Assembly (NCBI GenBank): GCA_963767585.1
Contig: CAVYEB010000002.1
Coordinates: forward strand, 2,080,865-2,144,864
Origin: an uncultured delta proteobacterium
GTDB lineage: Bacteria > Desulfobacterota > Syntrophobacteria > Syntrophobacterales > Syntrophobacteraceae
Direction: 5' to 3'
Length of the DNA stretch: 64,000 bases
Positions 806 through 63,108 of the stretch are shown one piece after another. Position numbers and translations under genes: made by a program. The first letter of the stretch is position 1; each line of letters begins with the position of its first letter. Under the pieces are notes generated by a model. It did not search any database. It had not been told where the DNA came from and saw only the letters and a program-made list of their open reading frames with translations.

Positions 806-826
806 CTCCTCAGTCCTCAGTCCTGT
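806..826 (-). repeat. GGACTGA heptamer array just downstream of the arsS-like gene
   Basis: ctcctcagtcctcagtcctg. Confidence 0.9.
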
Positions 827-835
827 CTTTTACGG

Positions 836-1789
836 TCACGCCGCAACAATGCTCCCGCCTCAAGTGAAGCCCGAGCCTGCGGTGCAGGCGTAGCAATGAT
901 CGCCTGTTACGATGGGCCTACCCTCTAAGGACATTTCGCGGATTTCAGAGATGTGTCTTTTACGGCCGCCATGGTGAAGTCCGGCCGCAAGGTTGAAATC
1001 ACAGTCGTAGAGAAATCCCTGCCAATCAACCGAAAGGGTGGTCCTGCACATCAATTGATCGATGGTACAGGGATTGAAGCTGTCTTCGAGTCTTTTTAGA
1101 TAGGCGGAGAGATTTCCGGAGACTTCCAGCCAGTTGCGGAATCGCCCGAGAGGCACATTGGCGAAGGTGAACAGGTTGGTGAAACTTACACCGTGTTTGC
1201 TTTCGAGTTCACGCCTGAACATGCGTTCCGCCTGCGCCTGCGCGGGCGGAAAGAAAGCCCCGGTCGGATTGGCTACAAGATCCAAGTTCAGCCCGGCGCC
1301 TTCCATCGCGTATCCATTGGCGTTCAGCAACTTGAGTGTCGAGATGCTCTTCCCCCACACTCCGGCCCCTCGCTGCGAATCTGTCCGGGGAGCGCTGGTC
1401 GATGGCAGAGAAGCCACTATCGTTACGCGGTGGCGCTTGTAAAGGTCGATCAGATATATAAATTCGGGGCGGGAGAGGGCGACCAGATTGGTGCGCACTA
1501 TCAGCTTGGGCGAAAGGGGTGCAAGTTCGGAAACAAGCCTTGGAAGGCTGGGCAGGAACTCAGGCGCGCCGCCCGTTATATCGAAGGAGGCGAACGAAAA
1601 ACGGCGGGCGCATGCGATGACTGCTTCGAGCGTCCGATCGTCCATCATCTCAGGCCGTGAAGGCCCGGCCTCCAGATGACAGTGGCGGCAGGCCAGATTG
1701 CATCTGAACCCCACGTTTATCTGCAAAACGGCCGCATTAACCCGCCGCAATTCCAGTCCGTGATTGTCAAGCTTTTCCCTGAAAGTCAT
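836..1789 (-). CDS. arsS: radical SAM/Cys-rich domain protein (ArsS-like); predicted selenoprotein with UGA 860-862 read as Sec and true stop at 836-838
   Basis: ORF 860..1789 has the CNLACRHCH radical-SAM box. It ends HCYACTAGSGFT-TGA-GGSIVAA-TGA, and the Cys forms of this family have Cys at that C-terminal position (recalled motif CTAGxGSSCGG). Confidence 0.75.
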
Positions 1790-1792
1790 CTC

Positions 1793-2125
1793 TCACATCG
1801 AAAGCTTTTCGGCTATCTTTCGCATCTGCACGCCATGCGCCAGTGACGCGCCTCCACGTATGGCGTTCGTAACGTGGATCGCTTCGGTCATTTCATCGAG
1901 GTTCGATCCCTTCTCCAGGCACGCCACAGTGTAGGCATCGATACAATAAGGACACTGAACCGCATGCGCCACTGCCAGGGCGATGAGCGCCTTTTCCCGT
2001 TCCGTCAGCGCCCCGTCTGCGAAGACCGCTCCGTAATAGTCGAAAAACTTCTTAGCCAACTCGGGAGCGCTTTTGCCGATTTCTTCGAATTTTGCCAGGT
2101 CTTGCGGGTCGTAATAGGTTTCCAC
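1793..2125 (-). CDS. AhpD-like / carboxymuconolactone decarboxylase family protein (peroxidase-like partner of ArsS-type genes)
   Basis: CPYC motif within ALIALAVAHAVQCPYCIDAY. GTG at 2123-2125 lies 7 nt after AAGGAGGA. The stop is 3 nt from the arsS-like ATG. Confidence 0.8.
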   Translation of the reverse strand: METYYDPQDLAKFEEIGKSAPELAKKFFDYYGAVFADGALTEREKALIALAVAHAVQCPYCIDAYTVACLEKGSNLDEMTEAIHVTNAIRGGASLAHGVQMRKIAEKLSM

Positions 2126-2350
2126 TAGTCTATCCTCCTTTTGACGGCCGGGTCCCATTTTACCACAAATTCTCTGCCCGGCGACAGAGTGTTTTGTATT
2201 CTCTCTGCAGGCTCCGGGACCGGGAACAGGGGTTTACCGAACCGGATCGGCCAAGTCATCGAACCCAATAGAAAAGCCCGCGTCAAACGGCGCGGGCATT
2301 GCTAACGCTACGAGCATTTACATGAGCAAAACTCTCATGCTCAACGCATC

Positions 2351-2432
2351 ATTCATCAGAAATTATTTGCTAATCACTATTTATTAATCGCTACTTGATA
2401 TCACTATTCATTAATCACTAATTACTATTCTT
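2351..2432 (-). repeat. AT-rich TAATCACTA-type word array immediately after the dsrP stop
   Basis: ttgctaatcactatttattaatcgctacttgatatcactattcattaatcactaattactattc. Confidence 0.85.
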
Positions 2433-3590
2433 CTATGCTTTCAGTTCTTCTTTGACCGAAACGGCAATCTTGTAAAGCACGGTCAGGACGAAGAATCCGG
2501 TTGCCCAGATCCCGAGTGCTATCATGATCTCAAGCAACCTGGGCGAGTATTCGCGAACCTGGTCGAGCGGGTTTGGGATGAAGCCGGCCACGATGAGACC
2601 GACGCCTTTTTCAATATACATGGAAAAGAAGACGCAGACGGAGGCGGCGAGGAGCATCCTGTCATTTTTGCGAATGTCCGGGTGCAGGAGCAGCACTACC
2701 CCGGCTATTGCAAGTATGGCAAACAGCCACGAAAGCGGGACAAGTTTGTGATGGCCCTCAAGTCCTACAAACAGGTACTTGAGCGCGTTCATATGGTCCG
2801 GAATATTGCTGTAAAAAGCCGTAAAGAACTCCAGACCCACGAAGAAAACACTTATCAGCATGGCGTATGTCATGATCATCGACAGCTTGTCGATGGCTTC
2901 CTTACCCGGATCGAATTTGGTGTACTTTTTCACCAGGAAGGAAAGCATAATGAGCAGCGCCGGACCGGAGCAGAAAGCTGAAGCGAGAAAGCGCGCAGCC
3001 ATGATGGCGGTAAGCCAGTAATCTCTTGCCGGAAGACCGGCGTAGAGGAATGCCGTGACCGTGTGAATGCTGACCGCCCAGGGGATCGAGATGTAGATGA
3101 GCGGCTTTACCCATTTCGGGTAATGGGTCCCCTTGCGCTCGGCCTCCAGCACGTTCCAGCCAATTAGAATGTTCAGCAGAAGGTATCCGTTCAAAACGAT
3201 CATGTCCCAGAAAAGGATCGAATTGGGCGTGGGATAAATCAAGACGTTGAGCAGGCGCATCGGCTTGCCAAGGTCCACCACGATGAACATGAGACACATG
3301 GTGACGGCAGCTATGGCGAGAAATTCGCCCAAAATGGTAATTTTGCCAAATGCCTTCACGTCGTGCAGGTAATAAGGCAGCACGACCATGACCGCCGAGG
3401 CGGCCACACCGACCAGAAAGGTGAACTGGGCGATGTAGATCCCCCAGGAAACGTCCCTGCTAAGGCCGGTGATCGTAAGACCCCTGTTCCACTGGCTGAG
3501 GTAGGCGATAAAACCGAGCCCCATGAAGACGAGCAGGACCCCAAGCAGTTTTTTGTATCTTGTGCCTCCAGTAAGTGCTCTTTCAAGCAT
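2433..3590 (-). CDS. dsrP: DsrP, NrfD/PsrC-type integral membrane subunit
   Basis: 385-aa polytopic membrane ORF, last gene of the dsrM-K-J-O-P order. Confidence 0.85.
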   Translation of the reverse strand: MLERALTGGTRYKKLLGVLLVFMGLGFIAYLSQWNRGLTITGLSRDVSWGIYIAQFTFLVGVAASAVMVVLPYYLHDVKAFGKITILGEFLAIAAVTMCLMFIVVDLGKPMRLLNVLIYPTPNSILFWDMIVLNGYLLLNILIGWNVLEAERKGTHYPKWVKPLIYISIPWAVSIHTVTAFLYAGLPARDYWLTAIMAARFLASAFCSGPALLIMLSFLVKKYTKFDPGKEAIDKLSMIMTYAMLISVFFVGLEFFTAFYSNIPDHMNALKYLFVGLEGHHKLVPLSWLFAILAIAGVVLLLHPDIRKNDRMLLAASVCVFFSMYIEKGVGLIVAGFIPNPLDQVREYSPRLLEIMIALGIWATGFFVLTVLYKIAVSVKEELKA

Positions 3591-3610: not shown

Positions 3611-3693
3611 AGGCAAAAGTAAAAAGTAAAACGGCAAAATAGAAAAACTGATGATCTCTCCACTTTTACCTTTTACCTTTTGCCTTTTTACTT
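3611..3693. repeat. GGCAAAAGTAAAA word-hairpin in the dsrO / dsrP spacer
   Basis: aggcaaaagtaaaaagtaaaacggcaaaa - 23 nt - cttttaccttttaccttttgcctttttactt. Confidence 0.9.
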
Positions 3694-6610: not shown

Positions 6611-6674
6611 CAGCGGTCAGTCTTCAGTGGTCAGGGTTTTTCCTGTCCACCGGCCACAGTCCACTGGCGGCTGA
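6611..6674. repeat. GGTCAG/CAGTGG word-hairpin in the dsrM / dsrK spacer
   Basis: cagcggtcagtcttcagtggtcagg gttttt cctgtccaccggccacagtccactggcggctg. Confidence 0.8.
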
Positions 6675-7717: not shown

Positions 7718-7810
7718 CAGTGAAGGGTGATGAGTGACGGGTGAAAAGGCACATCTAAGGACATGTCATATTCTGCTCACCCCTCACGGTTAACTCCTCA
7801 CTCTTCGCCA
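7718..7810. repeat. GTGAGG/GTGAAG word-hairpin between the small helical gene and dsrM
   Basis: cagtgaagggtgatgagtgacgggtgaaaagg ... ctgctcacccctcacggttaactcctcactcttcgcc. Confidence 0.85.
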
Positions 7811-10360: not shown

Positions 10361-10456
10361 GGCGGACCCTTACTTCCTTTCGGGTCTCCCGCTATAAGCG
10401 TGACCTGATGCGACGCGTATAGTCCGCGCCCGATCCTTTGTGAGGGCGGACCCTCT
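10361..10456 (-). repeat. REP/MITE-like dispersed element, family A
   Basis: The reverse complement matches 61735-61830 (gatcgggcg.ggactatacgc.tcgcatcaggtcacgcttatagcgggagacccg), with gagggcggaccctc-type ends. Confidence 0.85.
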
Positions 10457-10594: not shown

Positions 10595-10624
10595 CTCAGT
10601 CCTCAGTCCTCAGTCCTCAGTCCT
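10595..10624 (-). repeat. GGACTGA heptamer array (about 4.3 copies)
   Basis: ctcagtc x4, read directly. Confidence 0.95.
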
Positions 10625-11704: not shown

Positions 11705-11706
11705 AA

Positions 11707-11748
11707 GGCAATTAGGAATGAGCAATGAGCAATTAGGAATGAAGGAAT
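11707..11748 (+). repeat. AATTAGGAATG-family word array
   Basis: ggcaattaggaatgagcaatgagcaattaggaatgaagg, directly after the fabD stop. Confidence 0.9.
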
Positions 11749-11760
11749 AAGATTGAATCC

Positions 11761-13292: not shown

Positions 13293-13312
13293 TCCTCAGT
13301 CCTCAGTCCTCA
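13293..13312 (-). repeat. GGACTGA heptamer array supplying the DUF169 stop codon
   Basis: tcctcagtcctcagtcctca. The minus strand reads AAA GAA TGA GGA CTG AGG ACT GAG. Confidence 0.9.
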
Positions 13313-14152
13313 TTCTTTGGGCGGCTTCCACATCAGGTACGGGCAGAGCTTGCACATATTGAATCCGGGGTAGGTCTCACCTGTTCGGGGTAAAGAGACC
13401 CCTCCGTCGCGCACAGTCCTCTGGAGCATCCATCTGATGGTGGGTTCAAGGTGATCGCCCGGCCATATCCAATTTATTTCGCCCTGCTCGGTTTTTCCTG
13501 CCGTGTAGCTGCCGCTGCACATCGTGGTTATATTCGGCTTTCCAGTCACGTGCACGGCCGTCACGCCGTGGCAGGCTGAACTGCCCATGGTCATTACCGT
13601 TTCTAAGGGATGTATATCCATCGCTGCACACCAGTCGGTTCCGAGGTGATATGCCTGGAGCACGTCGCTGATCCCGTGGATTACATCAGGGGCAAAAGGG
13701 GCTTTGTGTATCGGAGCGGTGGCGAAGGCAAGCAACCCCTTGGGAAGCCTCTTCTTGGTCTTGACAAACCGCTCGGCCTGGGCCGGGTCTTTAGTGTACT
13801 TGAGATGGCTTTTCACTTCTCCTTCATCGAACTCCTTCCACCCGAAAACATAACGGGCATTCGTGCAGCCCAGACCTGCCGGTTCGGCAAGCACGACGTC
13901 CCCGCGTTGCCGTGAGGTCGCCAGGGAGTGGCAAAAGGTGAACCCGTGCTTTGGGGCCACATAATCGCCCCGGGCTTTGAAAGCAGCAAGCTCGTCGGAA
14001 TTGAAGAAAAATTTTACCCCGACGGGATAATATTTCATGCGAAGGAGATTCCTGAGGACAAGGGTGATATCGGCCCCATCAAGCTTCTCCTTTTCCAGCA
14101 TGGCTTTTGCGAATTCCACATCGTTCAGGAAAAGGGAGGAATTAATTGCCAT
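13310..14152 (-). CDS. DUF169 family protein
   Basis: 280-aa ORF. The YPVGVKFF...FCH... pattern is recalled for DUF169. Confidence 0.6.
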   Translation of the reverse strand: MAINSSLFLNDVEFAKAMLEKEKLDGADITLVLRNLLRMKYYPVGVKFFFNSDELAAFKARGDYVAPKHGFTFCHSLATSRQRGDVVLAEPAGLGCTNARYVFGWKEFDEGEVKSHLKYTKDPAQAERFVKTKKRLPKGLLAFATAPIHKAPFAPDVIHGISDVLQAYHLGTDWCAAMDIHPLETVMTMGSSACHGVTAVHVTGKPNITTMCSGSYTAGKTEQGEINWIWPGDHLEPTIRWMLQRTVRDGGVSLPRTGETYPGFNMCKLCPYLMWKPPKE

Positions 14153-19146: not shown

Positions 19147-19642
19147 TTTGAACTCATTCCAGTTTTGAGGCTGCCAAGGCAAAAATCTGCCGATTTACGA
19201 AGGAAGTATAATTGTAAGTGTTGATCCCTTACCAGGAATGCGAATCTTGCCCGGGAAGCTTTTCGGTCAGGTGTGGCGTTCATGAAGGATTTCCTTGGAT
19301 GCGGCGTACATTCTTAAATGCTCTCGGACACCACTCTGGATCAGTCTATTACCTATTTCGACATAGAAAGAAAGGAAAAAGAGGAGGTGTAGGCCTCACC
19401 GAGACCGCGTGGAGATTTCGGTTGAGCAGCGTGGATATGGAGGCTGCGAAACCAATTTTTGCGGTCCTCGGAAGAGCACTGTCAGCTATTCAACTATCTC
19501 TCCTCGGCCTTGACTTTTGGACTGCCTAAATCTTTGCTGTTTCCGAATCTCACTTTGATACTCTTATTCAGCGGAAGATCTGGCGGGCAGCTCATCAGCT
19601 ATTTCAAATGCGGCGCTGCGGTAACAGCGTCGTTCACGACGA

Positions 19643-19684
19643 GGACTGAGGACTGAGGACTGAGGACTGAGGACTGAGGACTGA
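19643..19684 (+). repeat. GGACTGA heptamer array, 6 perfect copies
   Basis: ggactga x6, read directly. Confidence 0.97.
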
Positions 19685-19782
19685 ATATAGAGGCTTGCCA
19701 TCTGAGGATCCGCCCTCACAAAAGATCAGGCGCATGCATCAGCATGTCGGCGATTCCAAAACACGCGGTCCGGATGTCACGA

Positions 19783-19812: not shown

Positions 19813-19899
19813 TCCATCTCAACGATCGCTTATTCTGGAGATCCATCCTCCGGGGTGGGGGATGTCTCCACATCTTTGGAGAAATCAAGGGAGAAGAAA

Positions 19900-20154
19900 T
19901 TGCCTATTTACGAATTTCGGTGTGCGGGTTGCGGCAATGTCGAGGAATTCATCCTGACGGGTAGCCGGGAAATCGAGATGAAGTGCAGCGCGTGCGGAGG
20001 GGAAGGCCTGGAGCGCGTCATCAGCCGAACAAACTATGTGATGGGTTCATCGGGTTCGTCGAAGGGAGCCGATATTTCTGCCACATCGCGCTCATGCGGA
20101 CCCGGGCAATCGTGCACGTCCATAGAACTGCCGGGACATAAAAGAGAGGACTGA
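19900..20154 (+). CDS. FmdB-family putative regulatory zinc-ribbon protein
   Basis: TTG start after AAGGGAGAAG gives (M)PIYEFRCAGCG...KCSACGG, the classic FmdB N-terminus. Confidence 0.7.
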   Translation: MPIYEFRCAGCGNVEEFILTGSREIEMKCSACGGEGLERVISRTNYVMGSSGSSKGADISATSRSCGPGQSCTSIELPGHKRED

Positions 20155-20176
20155 GGACTAAGGACTGAGGACTGAG
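20146..20176 (+). repeat. GGACTGA-type array supplying the zinc-ribbon gene stop (a copy at 20530-20560 lies inside the duplication)
   Basis: gaggactgaggactaaggactgaggactgagg. Confidence 0.95.
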
Positions 20177-20188
20177 GGGGGGACGAGT

Positions 20189-20509: not shown

Positions 20510-20572
20510 AACTGCCGGGACATAAAAGAGAGGACTGAGGACTAAGGACTGAGGACTGAGGGGGGGACGAGT

Positions 20573-20905: not shown

Positions 20906-20980
20906 GCGGCTTGCGTGCCTCTATACACAGACAGAAAGAATACGGAGGCAAATGAACAACATTGTTCCAGTTTACTTCCA

Positions 20981-45910: not shown

Positions 45911-45950
45911 AAGGCAATTTGGAGTTGGGAATGAGGAATTAGGAATTGAG
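45911..45950 (+). repeat. AATTAGGAATG-family array
   Basis: aaggcaatttggagttgggaatgaggaattaggaattgag. Confidence 0.9.
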
Positions 45951-46137
45951 ACGGCATGCCGCAGAGGCCGCAGAGATTTTGAAACGATTGAACAAAGAAG
46001 AAAATGTCAAAAGGCAAATAAATTAGGTGTGCGAATTCGTGGGCGAGACCCCGCTGCACTCCCGGGGTCTTGCCCGCGATTGGCTATCTGTTTAGGATTG
46101 TCATTCGCGCGCTTGGAGCGCTCCTACACCGGATCGA

Positions 46138-47418: not shown

Positions 47419-47987
47419 AAAGTTTTCGATCCTTGACTGTTCCTGACTCGAATATAGTTCGGCGGCAGGGCTGTAGAAGTGGCTTCCAGCCACGACAGAT
47501 TTGTATTCGTCGCGCCTGAAACCGGGGTTTTAATCGTAGAGGCCGACTAAGTTCAGGCCTCGCAGCAGCACACACATGTGGCCGACACAAAATCATCGTC
47601 GCCAACCGGTATGCTGTGCAAAGAGAAAATATGCCCGTGAGCAAGGAGGCCAGTGATCGATGGGGCTTGACGGCAGGCCGGAAAGAACTGAATTTCCAGG
47701 TCGCAGACGTCAAAAGCTAATTGGACGTATGATACACTATAAATTGCAAATAGCAAGTCACAAGTCTACAATATTCACTGCTTTACAACAGGGAATTGTA
47801 AAATAATTGAGTGTCGAGTGTTCTTTTCCGGATTACTGCGGTTATCGCAGGATGTTAATAATACGTCCATGACAATCAATATTCCACCCATTACTTGGAA
47901 GATATCCATGGAGAGAAAGGACTATTTTCCCGAGGCTCTCCCGATGGAGTATTCCGGATGAACAGGGATACAGGAGGAAAATCCATA

Positions 47988-48935
47988 ATGAAAAAAACTT
48001 TTCTCGTCGCGTTATTAGCATTTGCGACAATAGCGACAATGACACCATATGTGCATGCCGCAGCAGAAGACCTGTTCGACGCTGCTAAAGAAGGAGACAT
48101 TGCTGCAACCCGCCGGTTGCTGGAATGCGGCGCGAACGTAAATGTCAGAAATGAAAACCTGGAGACGCCTTTGCATTGGGCCGCTTATTGGGGCAAGACC
48201 GATGTCGCTGCATTTCTCATTCAGAAATGCGCAAAAGTGAATGCCAGGGATTACTACCAAAAGACGCCGTTGCATGATGCCGCTTCCCGGGGCAGGAACG
48301 ATGTTGCGGCATTGCTCACTCAGAACGGCGCAAAAATAAACGCCGGGGATTATTACCGGGAGACGCCATTGCATCATGCGGCCTATTTTGACAGGACCGA
48401 AATTGCGGCATTTCTCATCGATAAAGGTGCAAAGGTAAATGCCAGGGACGAGAATCAACAGACGCCGTTGCATTGGGCTGCAGAGGACCAGATTGAAGTG
48501 GTTGCATTGCTCATCGATAAGGGCGCAAAAGTAGATGCCAGGGACAATTACCAGGAGACGCCGTTGCACCATAACGCCTCCCGGGGCAAGACGGAGGTTG
48601 CCGCGTTCCTGATCGATAAAGGCGCAGACGTAAATGCCAGGAATGAGGACCAATGGACGCCTTTGCATAATGCTGCCTTTGCGGGCAACACCGAGGTTGC
48701 GGCATTGCTTATTGATAAAGGCGCAGACGTAAATGCCAGGGGCGTGAACCAAAAAACACCGTTGCACTGGGCTGCTTTTGCGGGCAGTACCGGTGTTGCG
48801 GCATTGCTTATTGACAAAGGCGCAGACGTAAATGCCAGAGACGTGAACCAGAAAACGCCGCTGTATTGGGCTGATCTTGTGGGCAACACCGAGGTTGTGG
48901 CACTGCTTAAAAGGCAATTAGGAACTAGGAATTAG
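47988..48935 (+). CDS. secreted ankyrin-repeat protein (about 9 repeats)
   Basis: AGGAGG-N8-ATG. Signal peptide MKKTFLVALLAFATIATMTPYVHA. Repeated TPLHWAA..G...VAALLIDKGADVNAR units. Confidence 0.85.
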   Translation: MKKTFLVALLAFATIATMTPYVHAAAEDLFDAAKEGDIAATRRLLECGANVNVRNENLETPLHWAAYWGKTDVAAFLIQKCAKVNARDYYQKTPLHDAASRGRNDVAALLTQNGAKINAGDYYRETPLHHAAYFDRTEIAAFLIDKGAKVNARDENQQTPLHWAAEDQIEVVALLIDKGAKVDARDNYQETPLHHNASRGKTEVAAFLIDKGADVNARNEDQWTPLHNAAFAGNTEVAALLIDKGADVNARGVNQKTPLHWAAFAGSTGVAALLIDKGADVNARDVNQKTPLYWADLVGNTEVVALLKRQLGTRN

Positions 48936-48954: not shown

Positions 48955-50154
48955 GTGCGAATCCCCAAAAGAAATTTCTTGTCGCTGGGCCTGATTTTTC
49001 TCATTTGTTCGGTCTTTCTTTTTTCTTCATATACTTTTTCCCGGGCGGAGTCCGAGAACTATGAAAATGCGCAACCGGCCGCGGAGCTTTTAAGGCCTCA
49101 GGCGTCTTACGACCAATACGCCGCGCTTATTGCGGGCATTCGCACACCAAAGTGTGTCCTGGCGCCTTTTGAAAACATGCCCGTCTGGACTGAATATGCC
49201 AAGGCCTCCGACAACAACTGGGAGAAGTACGGGAAGATGCAGTTGGCGCCAATGAGGAAGTGGGCAGCCACGGAACTGGACAAATCAATATCTTCGGGGT
49301 CCACCGTATTCTATCCATTCAGCGGACCGGATTTTATCAGTGCTTTCACCCTTTTCCCCGGTGCACAGACCTTTATCCTGATGGCCCTGGAACCAATCGG
49401 CGATATGCCTGATTTTCAGGCAATGAGCCAAAATGACTTCGATTCATTTTTTACCGATATCCGGAAGTCGCTCCACGATATACTGGACATTAACTATTTC
49501 ATAAGCTCACACATGGACACAGCCATGGAAAGCAAGGAACTCAACGGCGTGATTCCTTTTCTTCTTTTTTTCCTGGCGAGGGAAAAGACCCGCATACTCG
49601 ACGTCGAATATTGGTTTATGGAGCCGAACGGAACCATTCGGCAAGTCCCGGCGTTGAACGGTGGCAAGCCCGGTCCGGCAGACGTCATTCCGGGAGTGCG
49701 GATTGTGTTTGAAAGCGCAGACTCGCCGGGCAACAAGCCGCAGACACTCTACTACTTTCGGCTGAACCTTTATAACCCCAGCTTCGGGCGCAACAGGCAT
49801 TTCATTACTTTTTTGCAGAATTTTGGGCCGCTCATTACCTTCATGAAATCGGCGGCCTATGTAATGTTCGATCGACAGGCGTCGCTGGCGAGGCAGTTCG
49901 TTCTCAATCAAAGCCGCTATATTCTCCAGGAAGATTCCGGAATCCCCTTGAGGTACTTCGACCCTTCAATCTGGGCTCTGCAATTTTACGGCACTTACAG
50001 CGGGCCGATATCGGCTTTCAAAGAAGACTACCAGGCACGACTTGCGAAAATATACAGAAACGGCGGGAACATCAAACCTCTGCCCTTCGGAATAGGCTAT
50101 CACTTCCAGATTGAAACGGCCAACCTTATGCTGGCAACCAGGAAGGGCAATTAG
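48955..50154 (+). CDS. hypothetical secreted/anchored protein
   Basis: GGAGG-N8-GTG, an N-terminal hydrophobic helix, and no motif I recognise. Confidence 0.5.
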   Translation: MRIPKRNFLSLGLIFLICSVFLFSSYTFSRAESENYENAQPAAELLRPQASYDQYAALIAGIRTPKCVLAPFENMPVWTEYAKASDNNWEKYGKMQLAPMRKWAATELDKSISSGSTVFYPFSGPDFISAFTLFPGAQTFILMALEPIGDMPDFQAMSQNDFDSFFTDIRKSLHDILDINYFISSHMDTAMESKELNGVIPFLLFFLAREKTRILDVEYWFMEPNGTIRQVPALNGGKPGPADVIPGVRIVFESADSPGNKPQTLYYFRLNLYNPSFGRNRHFITFLQNFGPLITFMKSAAYVMFDRQASLARQFVLNQSRYILQEDSGIPLRYFDPSIWALQFYGTYSGPISAFKEDYQARLAKIYRNGGNIKPLPFGIGYHFQIETANLMLATRKGN

Positions 50155-50182
50155 GGATGAGGAATTAGGAATTAGGAATGGG
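50146..50182 (+). repeat. AATTAGGAATG-family array containing the stop of the 399-aa ORF
   Basis: ggcaattagggatgaggaattaggaattaggaatggg. Confidence 0.95.
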
Positions 50183-50721: not shown

Positions 50722-51194
50722 CGAAAAGACTCCTTTTAGGACCGCGGAACAATTAGATCATATCGCCTCACGGAGTCTTGGTATGGACTGAAGCAGAGAG
50801 GGTTTTGCATTCCGTCACTGCGTCCGCATGTTAGAGTGTCGTGCGGTCTCTATTGACACCAAGCCTCGACTCTGCGAAACGCTCACTGTTTTATCTTTAT
50901 TTCCGTAAGATAATCACTACCTTATCGTATCCATTCGTCTGGCAATCGGGGAGCGTTGCTTTCTTGCGGAAAGTTGACCTCGGGGCAGGCCCAGGGCTCA
51001 GGCCCAGGGCTATGAAATTGAGTGCGGGGGCATCAGGGCGGGCACTATACGCGTGCTACGCGGAGGCTTTGGACGGCAATTACTTGCTGCCTTTGATAAT
51101 AAAAAAGGAGATACCCACCCCTGTCGATGAGTTCCCCTCGTACCCCTTAGATAAATTGTCACCAACCTCGTCAGCCGGCATTCTTCGAATTGAG

Positions 51195-51269
51195 TCGGGA
51201 CGAGCCGATTTGAACGGCCGACCTCTTGCACCCCAAGCAAGCGCGCTAACCAGGCTGCGCCACGTCCCG
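51195..51269 (-). tRNA. tRNA-Pro (anticodon GGG), CCA not encoded
   Basis: Hand-folded: CGGGACG TG GCGC AGCCTGGTTA GCGC G CTTGC TTGGGGT GCAAG AGGTC GGCCG TTCAAAT CGGCT CGTCCCG A. Confidence 0.9.
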
Positions 51270-51493
51270 ATAAGCCCCCAGACTAACACCGAGCCACTGG
51301 GGAGTCAAGTTGAAAGCTGACGCCGAGGGGTTGCAACAAAGGGAGGCTATCGTTACCGGCGAGCCGGTCAGTCGTCGCTTCCAAACCGGGTATAATACGA
51401 AGTCCCATTCAAACGCGTCGCGGCTGGAGGCAGTCGCGGCTGGAAGCCGCTCCTACAGGGATTGAAGCCTGCGTCGCCTCCTCCTCGCCGTGA

Positions 51494-53703
<2,210 letters not shown>

Positions 53704-54208: not shown

Positions 54209-55387
54209 ATGAGAAGATTGCTTGTGATAATTGTTGCCGCAAGCCTGATTCTCTGGCCATTTGCCACGTTGGTGAATGCTGAGAACTCACCGTCCAAGCC
54301 TCCCATTGAACAACCTCTTGTAAGTGAAGGCGAATTTGCCGTGGAGCTGGCAACCGCCCTTAAATTGACCTCCTCACACGATGAAGCGGCAGCGGAAAAT
54401 TCTCTGTCCAAAATCAACATTGCACCCAAAAACGGATGGATTTCCAACTATCCGGTGACGCCCGATATCGTTGCCGAGGTCAGGGACAGCACCGCAAGAT
54501 CGGCATCCGCGAAGACCCTGAAGATGCCGGAGGCCGAGGCGACCCGGATAGTGGACAGCGTAAGCGTAGCCATGAATCTTCCGGTTAAAGCGGGCAATGA
54601 CCAATATAGTTACGAGTCAGGTCCCGATTCAAGTTACAGTTCAGATTACAGTTCCGGATACCAGGCAAATTCCTCCCCTCCGGAAGTTTATCCATATGAG
54701 GAACCCTCTGAAGTCGAAGGATACTTTGACGACTACGGACCTCCCGTGGTGACCTATTATCCGCCCCCCTGGGACTACGGCTATCTGTATGACTGGGTCC
54801 CGTATCCGTTTTGGTGGGGAGGATGGGGGTTCGGCGGTTTCTTCGTCCTCGGAGATTTCGACAGGCACGACCATTTCCATGGCCACCACCATGAGATTAC
54901 CAACCATGTGACCACGGCGAACGGCAGTGTCACCAGGGTCGATCCGGTAACCCGTGCAGCGACTGGAACGGCAAATGCGCGTTCTTCCACTCTAGCCGGG
55001 GCAAACAGGTCGTCGCAGGTGACGCGGCTAAATTCGGCAAACGCCCAGGCAGGCGCCAGGGCGATTTTAAACCGGCAAAATGCTGTTTCAGTAACGCGCG
55101 ACCTTGACAGGGCTGCGTCCGGCAGCCGCGTGGGGGCAACGAGCCGGGGTTCTGGTCCGATGTCTTCGTCCTTTAACGGCGGGCGGTCTGTCGGCAGGGT
55201 TGCGACGGCCCCTTCTTTTAGCGGCGGCTCGCGCAGCTATGGCGGGATGAGTGGCTTCCGCGGCAGCGGCGGGTATGGCGGCGGATTTAGCGGCTTCCAT
55301 GGAGGAGGAGGCGGATTTGGCGGCTTCCATGGAGGCGGCGGCGGATTTGGCGGCGGTGGTTTCCACGGCGGCGGTGGACGCCGTTAG
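54209..55387 (+). CDS. secreted protein with aromatic/His-rich core and a Gly-Phe-His low-complexity tail
   Basis: Signal peptide MRRLLVIIVAASLILWPFATLVNA. ...WWGGWGFGGFF...HDHFHGHHHE... ends GGFSGFHGGGGGFGGFHGGGGGFGGGGFHGGGGRR. Confidence 0.6.
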   Translation: MRRLLVIIVAASLILWPFATLVNAENSPSKPPIEQPLVSEGEFAVELATALKLTSSHDEAAAENSLSKINIAPKNGWISNYPVTPDIVAEVRDSTARSASAKTLKMPEAEATRIVDSVSVAMNLPVKAGNDQYSYESGPDSSYSSDYSSGYQANSSPPEVYPYEEPSEVEGYFDDYGPPVVTYYPPPWDYGYLYDWVPYPFWWGGWGFGGFFVLGDFDRHDHFHGHHHEITNHVTTANGSVTRVDPVTRAATGTANARSSTLAGANRSSQVTRLNSANAQAGARAILNRQNAVSVTRDLDRAASGSRVGATSRGSGPMSSSFNGGRSVGRVATAPSFSGGSRSYGGMSGFRGSGGYGGGFSGFHGGGGGFGGFHGGGGGFGGGGFHGGGGRR

Positions 55388-56140: not shown

Positions 56141-56247
56141 GGCGATTTTCAGCTATATAATCAAATCGGCAGAAAACCAAAACCAGGCCATAAAATATGC
56201 AAATTTCGGGCCTTCGGTGCTTAATTTCACGTCGAAAGGGAAACACT

Positions 56248-57048
56248 ATGGACTACTTGAAACCCGAGGCTTTTTTCGATCTGGCCTCATTCGCTCACCG
56301 CGACCTGTTTGCCGGCCGTAAATATGTCTGGGATAGCCTGAGCGAAATTAGCGGCTATCTGGAACAGCACCTCAAACCTAATGTGGCCCATCTGAAGTGT
56401 TTCAAACGTCCGCTGCCGAAGACGGTTGTAATGTGGAGGGGACAGACCCTGGATGCCGGCTTCGAGGTCCTTGGCGGAGATGTCACCAAGGGCAGGTTTC
56501 GCGTGAGAATCGGAGGTGAGGAAACCGATGAGGCGGCAGTACTGTGGGAGGGAAGTGTTCTGTGGGACGAAGCAATTTTTATCGGCCCGGGGGCAGTCGT
56601 TGAACCGGGGGCGCTGATAAAAGGTCCGTGCATAATAGGGCCGCAAGCCGAAGTGCGCCAGGGGGCGTACATGCGGGGCAAGTGTATAGTGGGCGCCAGA
56701 TGTATAGTCGGCCACACCACCGAGATGAAATCAAGCATCATGCTGGACGGCGCAAAGGCCGGGCATTTTGCCTACATCGGCGACAGCATTATTGGACATG
56801 AAGCAAACCTGGGGGCCGGCACGAAGCTCGCCAACCTGAAAATGGGGGAGCAGACCATCCGGGTGATAGCTCACGGCACGCAGATTATCACGAACCTGCG
56901 AAAGTTCGGGGCCATTCTCGGCGACCATGCGGAGACAGGCTGCAACTCTGTCACCAACCCAGGGACCGTTATAGGTAAAAGCTGCCGGGTTTTCCCTCTC
57001 ACATCCGTTCGGGCCGGCTACTATGAACCCAACTCAGTCATTAGATAA
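56248..57048 (+). CDS. left-handed beta-helix (hexapeptide repeat) protein, GlmU C-terminal-like
   Basis: Repeated [LIV]G-x4 hexapeptides: IGPGAVVEPGALIKGPCIIGPQAEVRQGAYMRGKCIVGARCIVG. Confidence 0.6.
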   Translation: MDYLKPEAFFDLASFAHRDLFAGRKYVWDSLSEISGYLEQHLKPNVAHLKCFKRPLPKTVVMWRGQTLDAGFEVLGGDVTKGRFRVRIGGEETDEAAVLWEGSVLWDEAIFIGPGAVVEPGALIKGPCIIGPQAEVRQGAYMRGKCIVGARCIVGHTTEMKSSIMLDGAKAGHFAYIGDSIIGHEANLGAGTKLANLKMGEQTIRVIAHGTQIITNLRKFGAILGDHAETGCNSVTNPGTVIGKSCRVFPLTSVRAGYYEPNSVIR

Positions 57049-57634
57049 TAGGACTGGGACAGGACTCTCAGTCCTCAGTCCTCAGTCCTCAGTCCTCAGT
57101 AAGGGGGAGGACGAGGTCATAAAGTATTTCCGAAAACTCCACGGCGCGGCGGAAGGAGGGGGAGAGGCACTTCCCTACCGATTGACCGCCTCAGGCGCCT
57201 GGGCTGCCTCGCGGCCTGGTTACCTGTTCAATTTTTTTAAAAAAATAAACCTATCATCGTTCGGCCTCTTTGTAGACCTTGGCAGCGGAGACGGAGTTGT
57301 CTGCTGCGTCGCAAGCCTGTTCACCACGGCGGTCGGAATAGAATCCGATCCTTTTCTGATATCGCGTGCTGCACAAGCCGCGCGGGAACTGAAACTCGAG
57401 GGCCGCGCGGGGTTCATTCGCGCCGATTTCCTTACTCAACGCATTCAGGCGGCAGACTGTCTGTTCATCTATCCGGACAAGCCCGTCTATCCACTGGAGA
57501 AGGTCCTGAATGGCTGGGGTGGGACCCTTTTAATCTCAGGCCCTCATTTTCCCCCAAAGCAGTTTTCGCTGAAAGAAAAGCTCCAGTGCGACACGGAGAC
57601 GCTGTCGGTGTATGTCGGAAGCCGTGAAGCATGA
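57023..57634 (+). CDS. SAM-dependent methyltransferase-like protein (start unresolved)
   Basis: VDLGSGDGVV motif I. The only in-frame ATG is at 57023, which makes the heptamer array translated ([12 protein letters not shown]). There is no ATG/GTG/TTG between the array and residue ~50 except TTG at 57182. Confidence 0.45.
   Translation: MNPTQSLDNRTGTGLSVLSPQSSVLSKGEDEVIKYFRKLHGAAEGGGEALPYRLTASGAWAASRPGYLFNFFKKINLSSFGLFVDLGSGDGVVCCVASLFTTAVGIESDPFLISRAAQAARELKLEGRAGFIRADFLTQRIQAADCLFIYPDKPVYPLEKVLNGWGGTLLISGPHFPPKQFSLKEKLQCDTETLSVYVGSREA
57051..57100. terminator. GGACTGG/GGACT words followed by an inverted CTCAGTC x5 array (hairpin) after the beta-helix gene
   Basis: ggactgggacaggact | ctcagtcctcagtcctcagtcctcagtcctcagt. 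Confidence 0.6.
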
Positions 57635-57723
57635 AGCAAAAAGCAAGAAGCAAGAAGCGTGAAGCGAGAAGCAAGGGTTTTCTGCTCCGTTTTTCCTGCT
57701 CCCTGCTCCCAGCTTCCTGCTCC
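57625..57723. terminator. GAAGCAA-word array / loop / CTGCTCC-word array between convergent genes
   Basis: gaagcatgaagcaaaaagcaagaagcaagaagcgtgaagcgagaagcaagg gtttt ctgctccgtttttcctgctccctgctcccagcttcctgctcc. Confidence 0.7.
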
Positions 57724-58837: not shown

Positions 58838-59010
58838 TGCGCCCTCACAAACGATCGGCGCCGGACTGCGCCCTCAGAAACCATCGAGCGCCGGACTAGA
58901 CGCGTTACATCACAGGCCATGCGTCAAGCGCGGGACCCAAGATCAGCGAGGGTCCGCATCACAGCACATAATGCGTATAGCGCAGACCCGTAACGCAGTG
59001 AGGGTCCGGG
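58838..59010 (+). repeat. REP/MITE-like family A, about 1.5-2 tandem copies
   Basis: gcgccctcacaaacgatcggcgccggact / gcgccctcagaaaccatcgagcgccggactagacgc ... gagggtccg ... gagggtccg. Confidence 0.8.
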
Positions 59011-59026: not shown

Positions 59027-59150
59027 GTTTTCATGGTTTCCGGGTGTCCCATGAGGGCATGAGCAACTGTTTCGAAAAGCTCATCGCGGGCATGGCCCGC
59101 TCCTACAGAGGTGTCGCGTGTTTTCATGGTTTCCGGGTACCCTATGGCAC
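59027..59150 (+). repeat. REP-like family B, two units
   Basis: ttttcatggtttccgggtgtccc..ctgtttcgaaaagctcatcgcgggcatggcccgctcctacag, then ttttcatggtttccgggtaccc. Confidence 0.8.
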
Positions 59151-60787: not shown

Positions 60788-60792
60788 TCCTG

Positions 60793-61698
60793 TCAAAGTC
60801 TTTGGTCTTCCTGCACCAGCAGACAGGGCGAAAGCGGGTCGTGGCGGGCGTAGTTGGCTTTTGCTCGCTCCAGGTTCGAAGTCGCATAGCAATAGCTGCA
60901 CCCGAAAACACAGGTATCATACATGCCGATGTCCCTGCTGGCGGCGCAACCGCATTCCTTTCTCTGGTACGGGTCCTTGGGGGGACTTATCCGGACCCCG
61001 AACAGCTTCGAAATCAGATCTGAATCTATGCACCTTGACGGGTATATGCCGAAATCCGATAAGTCCATTTCCGAGGCGCAGGAGAATATTTCCATACCGT
61101 TTTCGCGGGCTGTTCCCGAAATAGCATTCAAAAGCTCCCGAATCGGCGGGCTGCTGAAATCGACAGGCGCGGCGGCGCCTGGCGCCGCGGCCTCCATTCG
61201 GGCGCGCGCCTTGCGATAAGGCTTGACAAAGCTGATCACACAACGGTCGGTGGCGCCTTTGAGCTCTTCAGCTACCAGCCGGAAATTACTCTCATGAAAC
61301 GCAGTCCCGCTGAGATCGCTCAAAACTATAGGATCGTAGCGCCAAATAGTCCTTTGCCGTCCAACTCGAGCTGAAAGTTCCTGAAAAGTCCCGATAGATG
61401 CGCTCAACGGCGGCGCTCCGGGGTCAATGGCGGACGGGTAGCCAATCAGGGTGAAAAGGAAATAGTACCGACAGCCGAGGTCATCGAGTTCGTCGAGGTA
61501 TTTTATCAGCGGACGTGGATTACGGCTCCAGAAAACAAAAGCGTCGACTTCACCGGGTAAAAGAGCCACCCTCGAGACCTGGTTGGTGTTGAACGGATTG
61601 GGCACCAGGCACCAACCCCGGCGAACCCTGTTCACAAACCATTTCGAATAAAATGCCGGAATATCTGTCCGGCGGCTTGCACTTATAATCATGGCCAT
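60793..61698 (-). CDS. DUF1848 domain protein
   Basis: MIISASRRTDIPAFYSKWFVNRV...FWSRNP... and a C-terminal Cys cluster CGCAASRDIGMYDTCVFGCSYCYA. Confidence 0.7.
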   Translation of the reverse strand: MAMIISASRRTDIPAFYSKWFVNRVRRGWCLVPNPFNTNQVSRVALLPGEVDAFVFWSRNPRPLIKYLDELDDLGCRYYFLFTLIGYPSAIDPGAPPLSASIGTFQELSARVGRQRTIWRYDPIVLSDLSGTAFHESNFRLVAEELKGATDRCVISFVKPYRKARARMEAAAPGAAAPVDFSSPPIRELLNAISGTARENGMEIFSCASEMDLSDFGIYPSRCIDSDLISKLFGVRISPPKDPYQRKECGCAASRDIGMYDTCVFGCSYCYATSNLERAKANYARHDPLSPCLLVQEDQRL

Positions 61699-61734
61699 AT
61701 TGACTTAATTGCTGAAAACCTTAAATCCTTGTAT

Positions 61735-61830
61735 GCGCCCGCCCTCAGAAAAGATCGGGCGGGGACTATACGCATCGCATCAGGTCACGCTTATAGCGGG
61801 AGACCCGAAGCGGAGCGAGGGTCCGCCCCC
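61735..61830 (+). repeat. REP/MITE-like family A
   Basis: gcgcccgccctcagaaaagatcgggcggggactatacgcatcgcatcaggtcacgcttatagcgggagacccgaagcggagcgagggtccgcc. Confidence 0.85.
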
Positions 61831-61899
61831 TAAGGGGTGGATTTTTCGAGATCAAATTTATGGACCGCCGGCTTAAAGTCGGCGTCCGGGGAGATTCCA

Positions 61900-63108
61900 A
61901 TGAAAAGCGGTCTAAAGAAACCTCCTGCTATGCGAAAATCCACCAAAGCCATTCATGCCGGTAGCCTCGATCATAGCATATACGGTGAAGTCTCAGTCCC
62001 CATATTTCAAAGTTCGACTTTTGCTTTCCCCAGCGCTGCCGACGGGGCCGACCGATTTTCCGGGAAACAGTCCGGGTACATTTACAGCAGGCTCGGCAAC
62101 CCGACAGTAAAAGCCCTGGAGGATAGCATAGCAAGCCTGGAAGAGGGGTTTGCCGGGGTGGCGACAGCAACCGGAATGGCGGCAGTGAGTTCGGTTTACC
62201 TGTCATTTCTGGGCGGTGGAGATCATGTCGTTGCCACCAACTGTCTCTACGGCTCCTCGCGCGTGATTCTCGAAAGCGAACTGAGCCGCTATGGGGTGAA
62301 AACCACGTTCGTGGACAGCTCGGAGCTGTCGAACATCGCAAAGGCGGTGAACTCCGCGACCAGAATGATTTTCCTGGAATCACCCATGAATCCCAGCATG
62401 AAAATCACCGACCTGGCCGGGGCGGCGAAAATCGCCAGGGAACACGGCGCTCTTCTGGTAGTAGATAATACTTTTGCAAGCCCATACCTCCAGCGGCCTA
62501 TAGAATTTGGGGCCGATATCGTCATCCACAGCCTGACCAAATTTATCAACGGTCATACTGACGTGATTGGAGGGATGGTGATAACGAAGACCAAAGAGCT
62601 GTATAAACGTGTCAACAAGATAGTCAGCCTCTTCGGTGGAACCATGGACCCGCACCAGGCGTGGCTCATTCTGCGCGGGGTGCGCACTCTGCCCCTGAGG
62701 ATCGAGAAGGCCCAGGAAAACGCCATGAAACTTGCCAGGTTTCTGGAATCTCATCCCAAGGTGACGTGGGTAAGCTATCCAGGTCTTCCTGACCACCCGC
62801 AGCATGAATTGGCAAAACGCCAGATGGACGGATTCGGTTCGATGATTTCGTTTGGAGTGAAAAAGGGTCTCAATGGCGGAATAACCGTAATGAACAGCGT
62901 TCGGCTGATTACCCTGGCTGTATCGCTGGGAGGGGTAGAATCGCTTATAGAACACCCTGCTTCCATGACGCATGCATCCATTTCCCCGGAGGAAAGACGG
63001 GAATCGGGCATTGTGGACGAGCTTGTACGTTTTTCAGTAGGATGCGAGGATTTCGAAGACCTGCGCGAAGACCTCAACCAAGCCCTGAATACAATTAGGA
63101 ATTCCTGA
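61900..63108 (+). CDS. Cys/Met-metabolism PLP-dependent enzyme (methionine gamma-lyase / cystathionine gamma-synthase-like)
   Basis: TKAIHAG...PIFQSSTF...YSRLGNPTV...SLTKFINGH (PLP lysine). Confidence 0.8.
   Translation: MKSGLKKPPAMRKSTKAIHAGSLDHSIYGEVSVPIFQSSTFAFPSAADGADRFSGKQSGYIYSRLGNPTVKALEDSIASLEEGFAGVATATGMAAVSSVYLSFLGGGDHVVATNCLYGSSRVILESELSRYGVKTTFVDSSELSNIAKAVNSATRMIFLESPMNPSMKITDLAGAAKIAREHGALLVVDNTFASPYLQRPIEFGADIVIHSLTKFINGHTDVIGGMVITKTKELYKRVNKIVSLFGGTMDPHQAWLILRGVRTLPLRIEKAQENAMKLARFLESHPKVTWVSYPGLPDHPQHELAKRQMDGFGSMISFGVKKGLNGGITVMNSVRLITLAVSLGGVESLIEHPASMTHASISPEERRESGIVDELVRFSVGCEDFEDLREDLNQALNTIRNS

Follow-up and report, generated by a model that had tools for sequence, protein, structure and literature searches.

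What are the short tandem words that fill many of the intergenic spacers of this locus, and do they have a function? The stretch in question, 64,000 nucleotides of contig CAVYEB010000002.1 (hereafter the window), is, judging from its sequence, a chromosomal segment of an uncultured Syntrophobacteraceae bacterium (Desulfobacterota), and its SecD is 81-87% identical to the SecD of Syntrophobacteraceae metagenome-assembled genomes (MAGs) from peat and wetlands. According to our analysis, the words are units of heptanucleotide arrays that lie at gene boundaries with a defined strand polarity. On balance, we consider it probable that the arrays are gene-boundary elements built by slippage, which provide stop codons in all frames, often a motif resembling a ribosome-binding site, and, where two arrays are paired, 3' or intercistronic RNA hairpins. 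One pair encloses a gene of the four-helix-bundle family PF05635, and this cassette result, which was unplanned, may matter more than the array result.

The window has a GC content of about 52% and is 87% coding according to a cleaned gene list, in which genes were called greedily from long open reading frames (ORFs) and then passed through a self-trained codon score filter. Spacers of at least 10 nt were counted (n = 45, 8.5 kb in total). The comparison included 24 Syntrophobacteraceae loci around secD that were syntenic enough for spacer comparison, a metagenome sample of at least 120 contigs with (GGACTGA)3 and a GC content of 35-72%, and short-read contigs from two independent read sets of peat samples, ERR11596056 and ERR11523654.

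Tandem Repeats Finder (TRF) returned about 35 rows of period 7 (or 14/21), spanning 807-57723, and an autocorrelation scan of the window detected 26 runs of period 7 and none of periods 8-13. Under a strict test, a clear period-7 array was present in 18 of the 45 spacers, against a mean of 0.14 and a maximum of 2 in shuffled spacers; periods 4-6 and 8-12 gave 0-1 spacers each. With degenerate arrays recognized by TRF or by inspection (2371-2427, 6611-6674, 7718-7810, 26441-26460/26681-26706, 34465-34487, 42696-42718 and 57051-57100), the count rises to about 25 of 45, close to the approximately 25 of 38 gaps given in the initial annotation. The arrays are concentrated outside genes: 24 of 26 TRF arrays are non-coding, in a window that is 87% coding. 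The sole period-7 array wholly within a confidently called gene is ATGCCGG x2.7 at 40294-40312 (3' end of 40270-41433), and its word has no stop codon on either strand.

An assembly artefact, which had been named as a possible explanation, is ruled out, because independent short-read contigs are identical to the window across the arrays. Three contigs of ERR11596056 and one of ERR11523654 match at 100% identity and a fourth ERR11596056 contig at 99.98%; the spacers with arrays covered in this way number eight, plus the edge of a ninth. One short-read contig terminates within the 20983-21011 array, which is typical of repeats in short-read assembly, and the only copy that diverges (L203; 95.5% identity, 33 gaps) has the appearance of a noisy long-read assembly. 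Two exclusions made at the outset also hold. The arrays are contiguous 7-nt units without spacers, in contrast to the 23-50-nt repeats with unique spacers of similar length in a CRISPR array, and they lack the conserved flanks and the unit palindrome of repetitive extragenic palindromic sequences and bacterial interspersed mosaic elements (REP/BIME), which are dispersed imperfect palindromes of 20-40 nt.

The unit is always 7 nt. Words of 13 or 14 nt are double units, TAATCACTA has a period of 7/14, and what had been read as GTGAAC is properly CGTGAAC, so that the vocabulary of the initial annotation stands once its unit sizes are corrected. Rotated to the stop codon, the sense-strand words read TGAGGAC; TGAGGAA and TTAGGAA; TGAACNG, TGAGCGG and TGAAGGG; TAAAAAG and GCAAAAG; TAAAAAC; and TGAAGCR. 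Read in the direction of the preceding gene, a word comprises a stop codon and four further bases, mostly purines. At least eight word families, with copy numbers of 2.4 to 7, occur within the 64 kb, GGACTGA at about nine loci and AATTAGG/GGAATGA at about eight. The view that every word carries a stop is correct for the window when the sense strand is read: GGTCAGT has its stop in the complementary sequence, and this is the sense strand where that word occurs, and GAAGCAA has TGA in variant units only. A stop in eight of eight families is significant (~1e-3), not overwhelming, and less striking than at first sight, because a random heptamer oriented purine-rich already carries a stop in 41% of cases at the GC content of the window. 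Cores resembling a Shine-Dalgarno (SD) sequence, attributed earlier to most words, are found in the two commonest families (GGACTGA and AATTAGG/GGAATGA) and partly in two others, and are absent elsewhere; the combination of a stop with a purine-rich, often SD-like, core had been described correctly.

The array sites of the window are as follows, with the cassette given separately further on (z scores refer to dinucleotide shuffles).

807-824, minus strand: GGACTGA array of 2.6 copies (TRF), 35 nt downstream of the stop of gene 860-1789(-).
2371-2427, minus strand: degenerate period-7/14 array, sense AGTGATTAATGAATAGTGAT (TRF), with 13 stop triplets, beginning 5 nt past the stop of gene 2433-3590(-).
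3611-3693, minus strand: hairpin in which GGCAAAAG/GTAAAAG units face their complement, located between co-directional genes; -27.8 kcal/mol in sense (z -5.3), -16.3 in antisense.
6611-6674, minus strand: degenerate GGACAGT/GGTCAGT-type hairpin in an operon spacer; -24.9 kcal/mol, z -3.8.
7718-7810, minus strand: GTGAGG/GTGAAG-type hairpin in an operon spacer; -31.1 kcal/mol, z -2.7.
10595-10624, minus strand: GGACTGA array of 4.3 perfect copies in a divergent spacer (TRF).
11708-11742, plus strand: GCAATGA/AATTAGG array filling the stop-to-start junction 11705-11760 (TRF), identical in two further read sets.
13293-13312, minus strand: GGACTGA array of 2.9 copies holding the stop of gene 13310-14152(-), identical in L205.
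19641-19693, plus strand: GAGGACT array of 6.3 perfect copies plus degenerate units (TRF); a 65-aa ORF ends within it.
23852-23871, plus strand: AAAACTA array of 2.9 copies (TRF), ending 1 nt ahead of the LigD start codon.
26441-26460, plus strand: AATTAGR/GGAATGA units that include the stop codon of LigD and form the left arm of a long-range pair.
26681-26706, minus strand: inverted AATTAGG/GAAGCAA units, right arm of the long-range pair.
27293-27389, plus strand: CGTGAAC-type hairpin between yajC and secD, with the yajC stop codon in its first unit; -36.1 kcal/mol, z -4.3, identical in L001.
30180-30241, plus strand: AAGGCAAAAGTAAA hairpin 4 nt past the secF stop; -17.2 kcal/mol, z -3.0.
32248-32282, plus strand: AATTAGG/AATGAGG array in a 58-61-nt junction (TRF; read-set identity).
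33252-33268, plus strand: AAGGGTG array holding the stop of gene 32301-33266 (TRF).
34465-34487, plus strand: AAGGCAATTAGGAATGAGGAATT directly 5' of the ATG of a 63-aa ORF (from the sequence).
37045-37077, minus strand: AACAGTG/GAGCAGTG array occupying an entire stop-to-start spacer (TRF).
42696-42718, plus strand: degenerate GGCTGAGGACTGAGTGCTGAAGG in a divergent spacer (from the sequence).
45916-45947, plus strand: AATTAGG/AATGAGG array with its pyrimidine version on the sense (-) strand, the sole orientation exception.
50149-50179, plus strand: AATTAGG array holding the TAG stop of gene 48955-50154 (TRF).
52604-52628, minus strand: AATTAGG/AATGAGG array that takes up a stop-to-start spacer, its end lying 3 nt ahead of the ATG of gene 51494-52600(-).
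57051-57100, plus strand: GGACTGG/GGACAGG units followed by CTCAGTC x4.9, just past the stop of gene 56197-57048; hairpin -23.6 kcal/mol, z -3.2, 3-nt loop.
57625-57723, minus strand: long hairpin between convergent genes; its arms are of the GAAGCAA type and, on the other strand, of the GGAGCAG type; minus strand -50.7 kcal/mol, z -5.6, plus strand -33.9.

The position of the arrays relative to genes is not symmetrical. Spacers that contain a gene 3' end carry arrays in 15 of 30 cases, as opposed to 3 of 15 divergent spacers, though the divergent ones are longer. That arrays lie flush with gene ends is borne out. Eight genes take their stop codon from an array (13310, 20152, 21003, 26453, 27295, 33264, 50152 and 57632), and only 1-11 nt separate several arrays from a following start codon (20189, 20573, 23873 and 52600). 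Among the lone arrays in co-directional spacers, the purine, stop-bearing strand is the sense strand in 10 of 11; the exception, 45916-45947, probably represents the 3' arm left from a decayed pair whose loop holds a partial copy of the 'X' repeat (described at the end). In every inverted pair of the window the purine arm lies 5' of the pyrimidine arm. This chirality is the same on both strands, so that either member of a convergent gene pair terminates in a purine arm of its own.

The same biases were found in the metagenome sample, for which all figures, here and below, apply among the matches listed. A sense ORF of at least 100 aa ends at the array in 54% of 94 (GGACTGA)>=3 arrays with adequate flanks, compared with 11% both on the antisense strand and at random positions, and purine-first pairs outnumber pyrimidine-first pairs by 24 to 3; polarity and chirality are therefore general. 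Period-7 arrays number 286 on these contigs versus 1-29 for other periods. The rule that every word has a stop is not general: metagenome words other than GGACTGA carry one in 46-48% of cases (29% expected). No excess of downstream ORF starts near arrays was seen in this sample, where the start control is poor, and a view of the arrays as start-proximal elements was not retained.

The seven array/loop/inverted-array hairpins proposed from the sequence all fold significantly, with z scores of -2.7 to -5.6, and the long-range pair 26441-26460/26681-26706 encloses, much as had been noted, two copies of a repeat of about 100 nt that is also present at 59029-59143. In several of these hairpins one strand is much more stable, because the two arms differ by transitions that keep G-U pairs: -27.8 kcal/mol in the sense orientation versus -16.3 at 3611-3693, -36.1 (sense) versus -28.5 at 27294-27388, and -50.7 (minus strand) versus -33.9 (plus strand) at 57625-57723. 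Other hairpins show no such bias. The strand bias favours selection on transcript structure, though not strongly. Known RNA families do not account for the hairpins, since Rfam at the gathering threshold returned no family match in the whole window save the tRNA at 51195-51269. Intrinsic terminators are GC-rich stems of 5-20 bp with a loop of 3-8 nt and a U tract after the stem. Among the array hairpins, those of the GGCAAAA/TTTTGCC type have 3' arms rich in U and the others do not; a scan of 19-38 kb for sigma-70 and terminator consensus gave no terminator match that coincides with an array hairpin and no excess of canonical terminators, an explanation that was not retained.

The comparison with relatives revealed rapid turnover. 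Between yajC and secD, a hairpin is present in 21 of 21 relatives aligned, and the sequences are unrelated: words of the CGTGAAC type occur in the window, L009 and L023, of the GGTCAGT type in L003 and L005, and of the CATCCGA type in L011, and the remaining relatives have plain GC stems. The sense strand of this hairpin is the more stable in 16 of 22 cases (21 relatives and the window), with a mean difference of -3.2 kcal/mol. At the 3' site of secF, the window shares the GGCAAAAGTAAAA family with L011, the GGACAGT family occurs in L003 and L006 and the GGAAGCG family in L012 and L014, and L004 and L035 have nothing. The AATGAGG/AATTAGG spacer of junction 32243-32300 is 58-61 nt long versus about 5 nt in the 16 relatives aligned (all but one); at the equivalent junction L004 has TCTGAGGAAGATG, which includes TGAGGAA, i.e., the heptamer itself, and other relatives have differing sequences of TGA plus purines. 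The density of period-7 arrays is 2.8 per 10 kb in the window and 0-1.4 per 10 kb in the closest relatives. In these alignments the sites behave as conserved positions for a 3' or intercistronic hairpin or a tight junction, the sequence of which appears to be rebuilt quickly, here mostly from heptamers. The interspecies differences in word and length are consistent with slippage, without being proof of it. Taken together, the window and its relatives offer an unusually clean comparative picture, in which the same spacer has different words, an ordinary hairpin or nothing. Three unrelated lineages have their own heptamer arrays and purine-first pairs near secD: Desulfobacteraceae, Nitrospirota and Thermodesulfobacteriota (L029 10935-11009, L037 11255-11327 and L039 12514-12560; words AGCTGAT, AAATGAG and AAAGCTC).

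We infer from this evidence that the arrays are generated and resized by replication slippage, the seed being a tight stop-codon/SD junction or the stem of an existing 3' hairpin. They would survive because each unit re-creates the stop in the next frame, and since 7 = 1 mod 3, three units give a stop in every frame; the upstream ORF would be terminated at any copy number and ribosomes kept off the sequence downstream. A lone array would act as a stop-to-start junction, in which GGACTGA and GGAATGA/AATTAGG may offer GGA/GAGG ribosome-binding-like motifs to the next cistron and permit translational coupling. A purine array with its inverted complement would give a transcript hairpin of 20-35 bp right after the stop codon, free of ribosomes, taking over from the ordinary GC-rich 3' or intercistronic hairpin that relatives have at this site; its candidate jobs are transcript-end formation, RNase III-type processing and exonuclease protection. 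The three roles offered in the initial annotation (all-frame stop with re-initiation, 3'-end or processing hairpin, and slippage) are thus the components that the evidence favours, to which our analysis adds the uniform period of 7, the purine-first chirality, the rapid turnover and a cassette travelling with the arrays at 20146-21011. Polarity, stop donation and purine-first pairs turn the question of junk or regulator into testable statements on termination, re-initiation and 3' hairpins.

Heptanucleotide arrays have been known in bacteria since 1990, and the idea of an undescribed element class is not borne out, since such arrays are documented in several lineages. Mazel et al. reportedly described the short tandemly repeated repetitive (STRR) sequences of cyanobacteria in 1990. 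Heptanucleotide units are the commonest long simple-sequence repeats (LSSRs) of prokaryotes (Mrazek 2007, as summarised in PMC4679880). The arrays of the window agree with LSSRs and STRRs in their head-to-tail 7-nt units in excess over chance, their mainly intergenic position, the few unit families at many loci of a genome, their sporadic phylogenetic distribution and the proposed origin by slippage. They differ in lineage (Syntrophobacteraceae, Desulfobacterota) and in words, and they add polarity to the upstream gene, stop-codon donation and purine-first pairs to the LSSR/STRR descriptions as read.

Two described systems are closer. TAACTGA direct repeats occur in marine Beggiatoaceae, cyanobacteria and Bacteroidetes (MacGregor 2015, PMC4679880); in Beggiatoaceae about 170 such arrays stand in forward orientation just upstream of start codons, carry stops in all frames and often overlap the end of the upstream ORF (PMC4679880). 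The window arrays share with them the forward orientation, the all-frame stops, the overlap with the upstream ORF and/or proximity to a start, the CTGA ending of a word, reverse copies readable as ORFs and a range of two to six copies. Whereas Beggiatoaceae have one dominant word and a single inverted pair, the window has at least eight families, about a third of its sites are hairpin pairs, and the association is with gene 3' ends; the TAACTGA unit, as a single dominant word, was not seen in the window, where the units are GGACTGA, AATTAGG, CGTGAAC and others. In Geobacter metallireducens, eight inverted pairs of five MTYCTGA heptamers within operons were reported as 'class 3 global regulator binding sites' and read as DNA-binding sites of the IHF/HU type (Aklujkar 2009, PMC2700814). 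The likeness lies in tandem heptamers on opposite strands, a variable gap (in the related classes 1-2), an intra-operon position (proB-proA), a word of the NNNCTGA type and the same broad deltaproteobacterial grouping, and seven pairs of opposite-strand heptamer arrays with a variable gap, intergenic or within operons, were found in the window. The consensus of five MTYCTGA units was not found in the window, where GGACTGA shares only the CTGA ending and copies vary from 2.4 to 7, and the Geobacter report draws no link to stop codons, RNA hairpins or gene cassettes. The arrays of the window are therefore a new lineage and variant of an element kind that has been described and is functionally unexplained.

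The gene enclosed by a GGACTGA pair, between a Zn-ribbon gene and a DnaJ-like gene, encodes a four-helix-bundle protein (PF05635/TIGR02436 according to Pfam and NCBIfam; PDB relative 2GSC). The components of this cassette are listed below.

20146-20177, plus strand: GAGGACT array, 5' arm of the cassette (TRF); the Zn-ribbon gene 19855-20154 takes its stop from it, and 11 nt separate its end from the four-helix-bundle ORF.
20189-20905, plus strand: two copies of the PF05635/TIGR02436 gene (Pfam, NCBIfam, TRF, alignment).
20530-20561, plus strand: second GAGGACT array, between the two four-helix-bundle copies (TRF).
20981-21011, minus strand: inverted GGACTGA/GGACTGG array, 3' arm of the cassette, containing the stop of gene 21003-21413(-).

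The flanks form a duplex of -65 kcal/mol, within the range of 11 other cassettes (-26 to -73 kcal/mol). A 384-bp tandem duplication (20063-20830, 99% identical) extends from the last part of the Zn-ribbon gene across the GAGGACT array into the four-helix-bundle gene, of which it takes in the first two-thirds, and it truncates the first copy to a chimeric 20189-20509; it is not independently confirmed, as the independent short-read contig ends at 20999. The second copy (20573-20905) has a 1-nt deletion near 20892 relative to all homologues and is 110 aa long instead of the usual 127 aa, which makes it either a pseudogene or the product of a sequencing error.

The cassette changes its site and orientation between species. 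L003, L005 and L006 carry this gene, again with GGACTGA flanks, in the adjacent convergent junction, where the spacer of the window is 0 nt; the gene lies on opposite strands in L003 as compared to L005 and L006, with the breakpoints inside the arrays. In L209-L211 the cassette is in the same junction as in the window, in reversed orientation. The loci are the following.

L003 4528-5045; L005 3181-3700; L006 4360-4960; L209 1476-2130: cassette loci, inverted between species.

These inversions at two convergent junctions, with breakpoints in inverted GGACTGA arrays, therefore indicate recombination between the arrays. At the same junctions, relatives free of the cassette have a one-unit palindrome CAGGACTGAcTCAGTCCTG (L004), a GTGAAGG hairpin or nothing. 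Beyond the family, proteins 81-89% identical to that of the window were found in Chthonomonas (Armatimonadota), Hydrogenedentes, an actinobacterial MAG and Desulfomonile, and in Chthonomonas (L207) and Hydrogenedentes (L212) the flanks are again GGACTGA/GGGATGA arrays and their inverse. Homologues of 35-47% identity are located on plasmids of Nostoc, Aulosira, Calothrix, Picosynechococcus and Riemerella (L218-L226), where the flanking words are GGAGTCA, GTAGGGA, GTAGGGT, GGGAAAA, GGAGATAA and AAGGTTC. In total, 12 of 13 PF05635 genes sampled, from five phyla, are bracketed by an upstream purine array and its downstream inverted complement. One homologue lies between cmr2 and cmr3, which matches an earlier, unexplained report of four-helix-bundle genes inside cas operons (PMC3936711); another is between two ribonucleotide reductase genes (nrdA-nrdB), on the opposite strand.

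PF05635 is a huge family known only from 23S rRNA intervening sequences (IVSs) and as relatives of Avd, the accessory protein of diversity-generating retroelements (DGRs). Ralph and McClelland are said to have described 23S rRNA IVSs with a PF05635 ORF in 1993. Both IVSs carrying this ORF and ORF-less IVS hairpins have been reviewed (PMC11270868). The element at 20146-21011 resembles IVSs in that it encodes a PF05635/TIGR02436 protein within complementary flanks that form a long stem around the ORF, in its sporadic horizontal spread and in the existence of ORF-less versions. It differs in that it stands between protein-coding genes, where IVSs lie in a 23S rRNA helix and are excised by RNase III, and its stem arms are tandem heptamer arrays. 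In the literature searched, we found no paper linking PF05635 to tandem-repeat flanks and none on GGACTGA arrays. What appears to be new is a GGACTGA pair that encloses a PF05635 gene, the flipping of this gene between species, and the like bracketing of 12 of 13 sampled genes in five phyla. Should a genome-wide survey confirm this, it would point to a mobile gene cassette of a new type, and would also explain PF05635 genes within operons such as cmr2-cmr3 or nrdA-nrdB.

Slippage-built boundary elements would accommodate this cassette. The same architecture may serve as a universal adapter for a promoterless four-helix-bundle cassette in the loop of a GGACTGA hairpin, with the inverted arrays as the recombination substrates that flip it; since the arrays suit a promoterless cassette behind any gene and in any frame, this would explain the association. 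A general link between GGACTGA arrays and the four-helix-bundle gene was rejected, as most arrays do not adjoin such a gene and 674 kb of metagenome contigs contained only one distant homologue near such arrays among the matches listed.

Several observations weigh against the arrays being slippage-built boundary elements. Three arrays lie in divergent 5' regions (10595, 19641 and 23852), and about half of the heptamer words of other contigs have no stop codon. Slippage itself was not observed, array copy numbers being identical between the independent read sets. The sense-over-antisense bias of the folds is modest, clear in 3 of 6 co-directional hairpins and reversed in one, and the 19-38-kb scan found 22 stem-plus-U-tract terminators where 23 were expected. 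The main point left unexplained is that a small set of words, led by GGACTGA, comes back at loci that are unlinked and in taxa that are unrelated: at least 120 metagenome contigs (35-72% GC) carry GGACTGA x3, and the same few words are shared by many loci and distant taxa. Such recurrence is not predicted by purely local seeding, and suggests word-specific selection or copying.

The recurrence would be expected if the arrays were bound by at least one protein that recognises specific DNA or RNA sequences, and so made up a post-transcriptional or chromosomal regulon, for example a CsrA-like protein on the GGA found every 7 nt, or the pentameric four-helix-bundle protein on its cognate array. 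The same words stand at many unlinked loci in the window and its relatives, with GGACTGA in unrelated contigs as well, and each four-helix-bundle subfamily has a word of its own (GGACTGA, GGAGTCA, GTAGGGA, GTAGGGT, AAGGTTC and others), which resembles co-evolution of a protein with its site; regulator binding was also proposed for heptamer arrays by MacGregor (PMC4679880) and Aklujkar (PMC2700814). We nevertheless regard this explanation as rather unlikely. At least eight words within 64 kb, of which only two families hold GGA, and orthologous spacers that swap words or lose the array while the flanking genes are kept do not fit a regulon, and the window contains one four-helix-bundle gene, with one distant homologue in the 674 kb of metagenome contigs. 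A CsrA sponge or target, suggested by the regular GGA, was not retained, given that only two word families contain it, and Rho loading (rut) by the C-rich antisense strand is a poor fit to the T-rich families.

The rapid turnover raises the question of whether the arrays are merely functionless slippage debris, surviving where tolerated, with stops, orientation and hairpins as by-products. Arrays are wholly absent from the same spacers in close relatives, their density falls from 2.8 per 10 kb in the window to 0-1.4 in relatives, heptamers are the most frequent prokaryotic LSSRs in general (Mrazek 2007, via PMC4679880), and the enrichment of stops outside the window is only about 1.6-fold over the null among the matches listed. 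Debris should, however, be symmetrical with respect to strand, whereas a five-fold sense bias was found at ORF ends and pairs are distributed 24:3 (among the matches listed), and it should be at least equally frequent in the longer divergent spacers, in which arrays are rarer. Furthermore, selection on RNA structure is indicated by arms whose differences are transitions that leave G-U pairing intact on one strand, and a yajC-secD hairpin is present in 21 of 21 relatives aligned. We thus consider debris an unlikely account, slightly more so than a regulon.

The weakest explanation, that the arrays are termini or ORF-less remnants of a mobile IVS-like element of which the four-helix-bundle cassette is the autonomous form, as miniature inverted-repeat transposable elements (MITEs) relate to transposons, draws on the array flanks of 12 of 13 sampled genes in five phyla, the 81-89% protein identity across phyla, the different convergent junctions occupied per species with GGACTGA flanks unlike the GTGAAGG hairpins of cassette-free relatives, and the ORF-less IVS hairpins of 23S rRNA genes (PMC11270868), yet it is very doubtful, given that arrays are mostly single, that seven other word families of the window have no associated gene, that solo GGACTGA arrays show no trace of the cassette's leader or tail, and that PF05635 has no known transposase-like activity and the cassette was not found in viral contigs (IMG/VR). 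Solo arrays as ORF-deleted cassettes were rejected in particular, as no leader or tail remnants adjoin them in the window or at 120 metagenome loci (among the matches listed), and so was a phage origin of the cassette, of which no relative was found in IMG/VR.

Slippage-built boundary elements and the cassette could also be parts of a larger whole. As a speculation to which we give only a small chance, heptamer-array hairpins and PF05635 genes would be one system, an IVS-like promoterless selfish cassette spreading between phyla. Its 5' purine array would stop the host ORF in any frame and give the passenger gene its ribosome-binding site, and its 3' inverted array would pair with the 5' array in the RNA, with insulation or excision of the insert as the result. 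The repeat arms would act as register-tolerant homology for ectopic recombination, allowing the cassette to land in other array hairpins and to flip, and the pentameric protein may recognise its cognate heptamer array. If true, both STRR-type repeats and a very large protein family would thereby acquire a function.

Some further elements of the window were noted. The 'X' repeat, similar to REP or MITE elements, is about 100 nt long with the core TTTCATGGTTTCCGGGTGTCCC and occurs in pairs at 26470-26680 and 59029-59143 and partially at 46040-46100; it is also present in L014 and L035. At two loci it lies within the loop of an AATTAGG array pair, and at the secF 3' hairpin it is present in L014 and absent from the closely related L012. 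It appears to insert into array hairpins. The motif CGCCCTCACAAAAGATCGGGCG was found in divergent or 5' intergenic regions at 10427-10448(-), 19711-19732(+) and 61740-61761(+), twice downstream of a GGACTGA array in the same orientation, and a related 29-nt tandem is located at 58838-58897. The single match to Rfam is given below.

51195-51269, minus strand: tRNA gene (Rfam, 59.5 bits).

The 159-aa ORF 50841-51320 that overlaps this tRNA is spurious. Two TRF matches of long period belong to proteins: 47895-48935, with a period of 99 nt, corresponds to a protein of seven ankyrin repeats, and 55265-55374 to a Gly-rich repeat in ORF 54209-55387, which is without a Pfam match.

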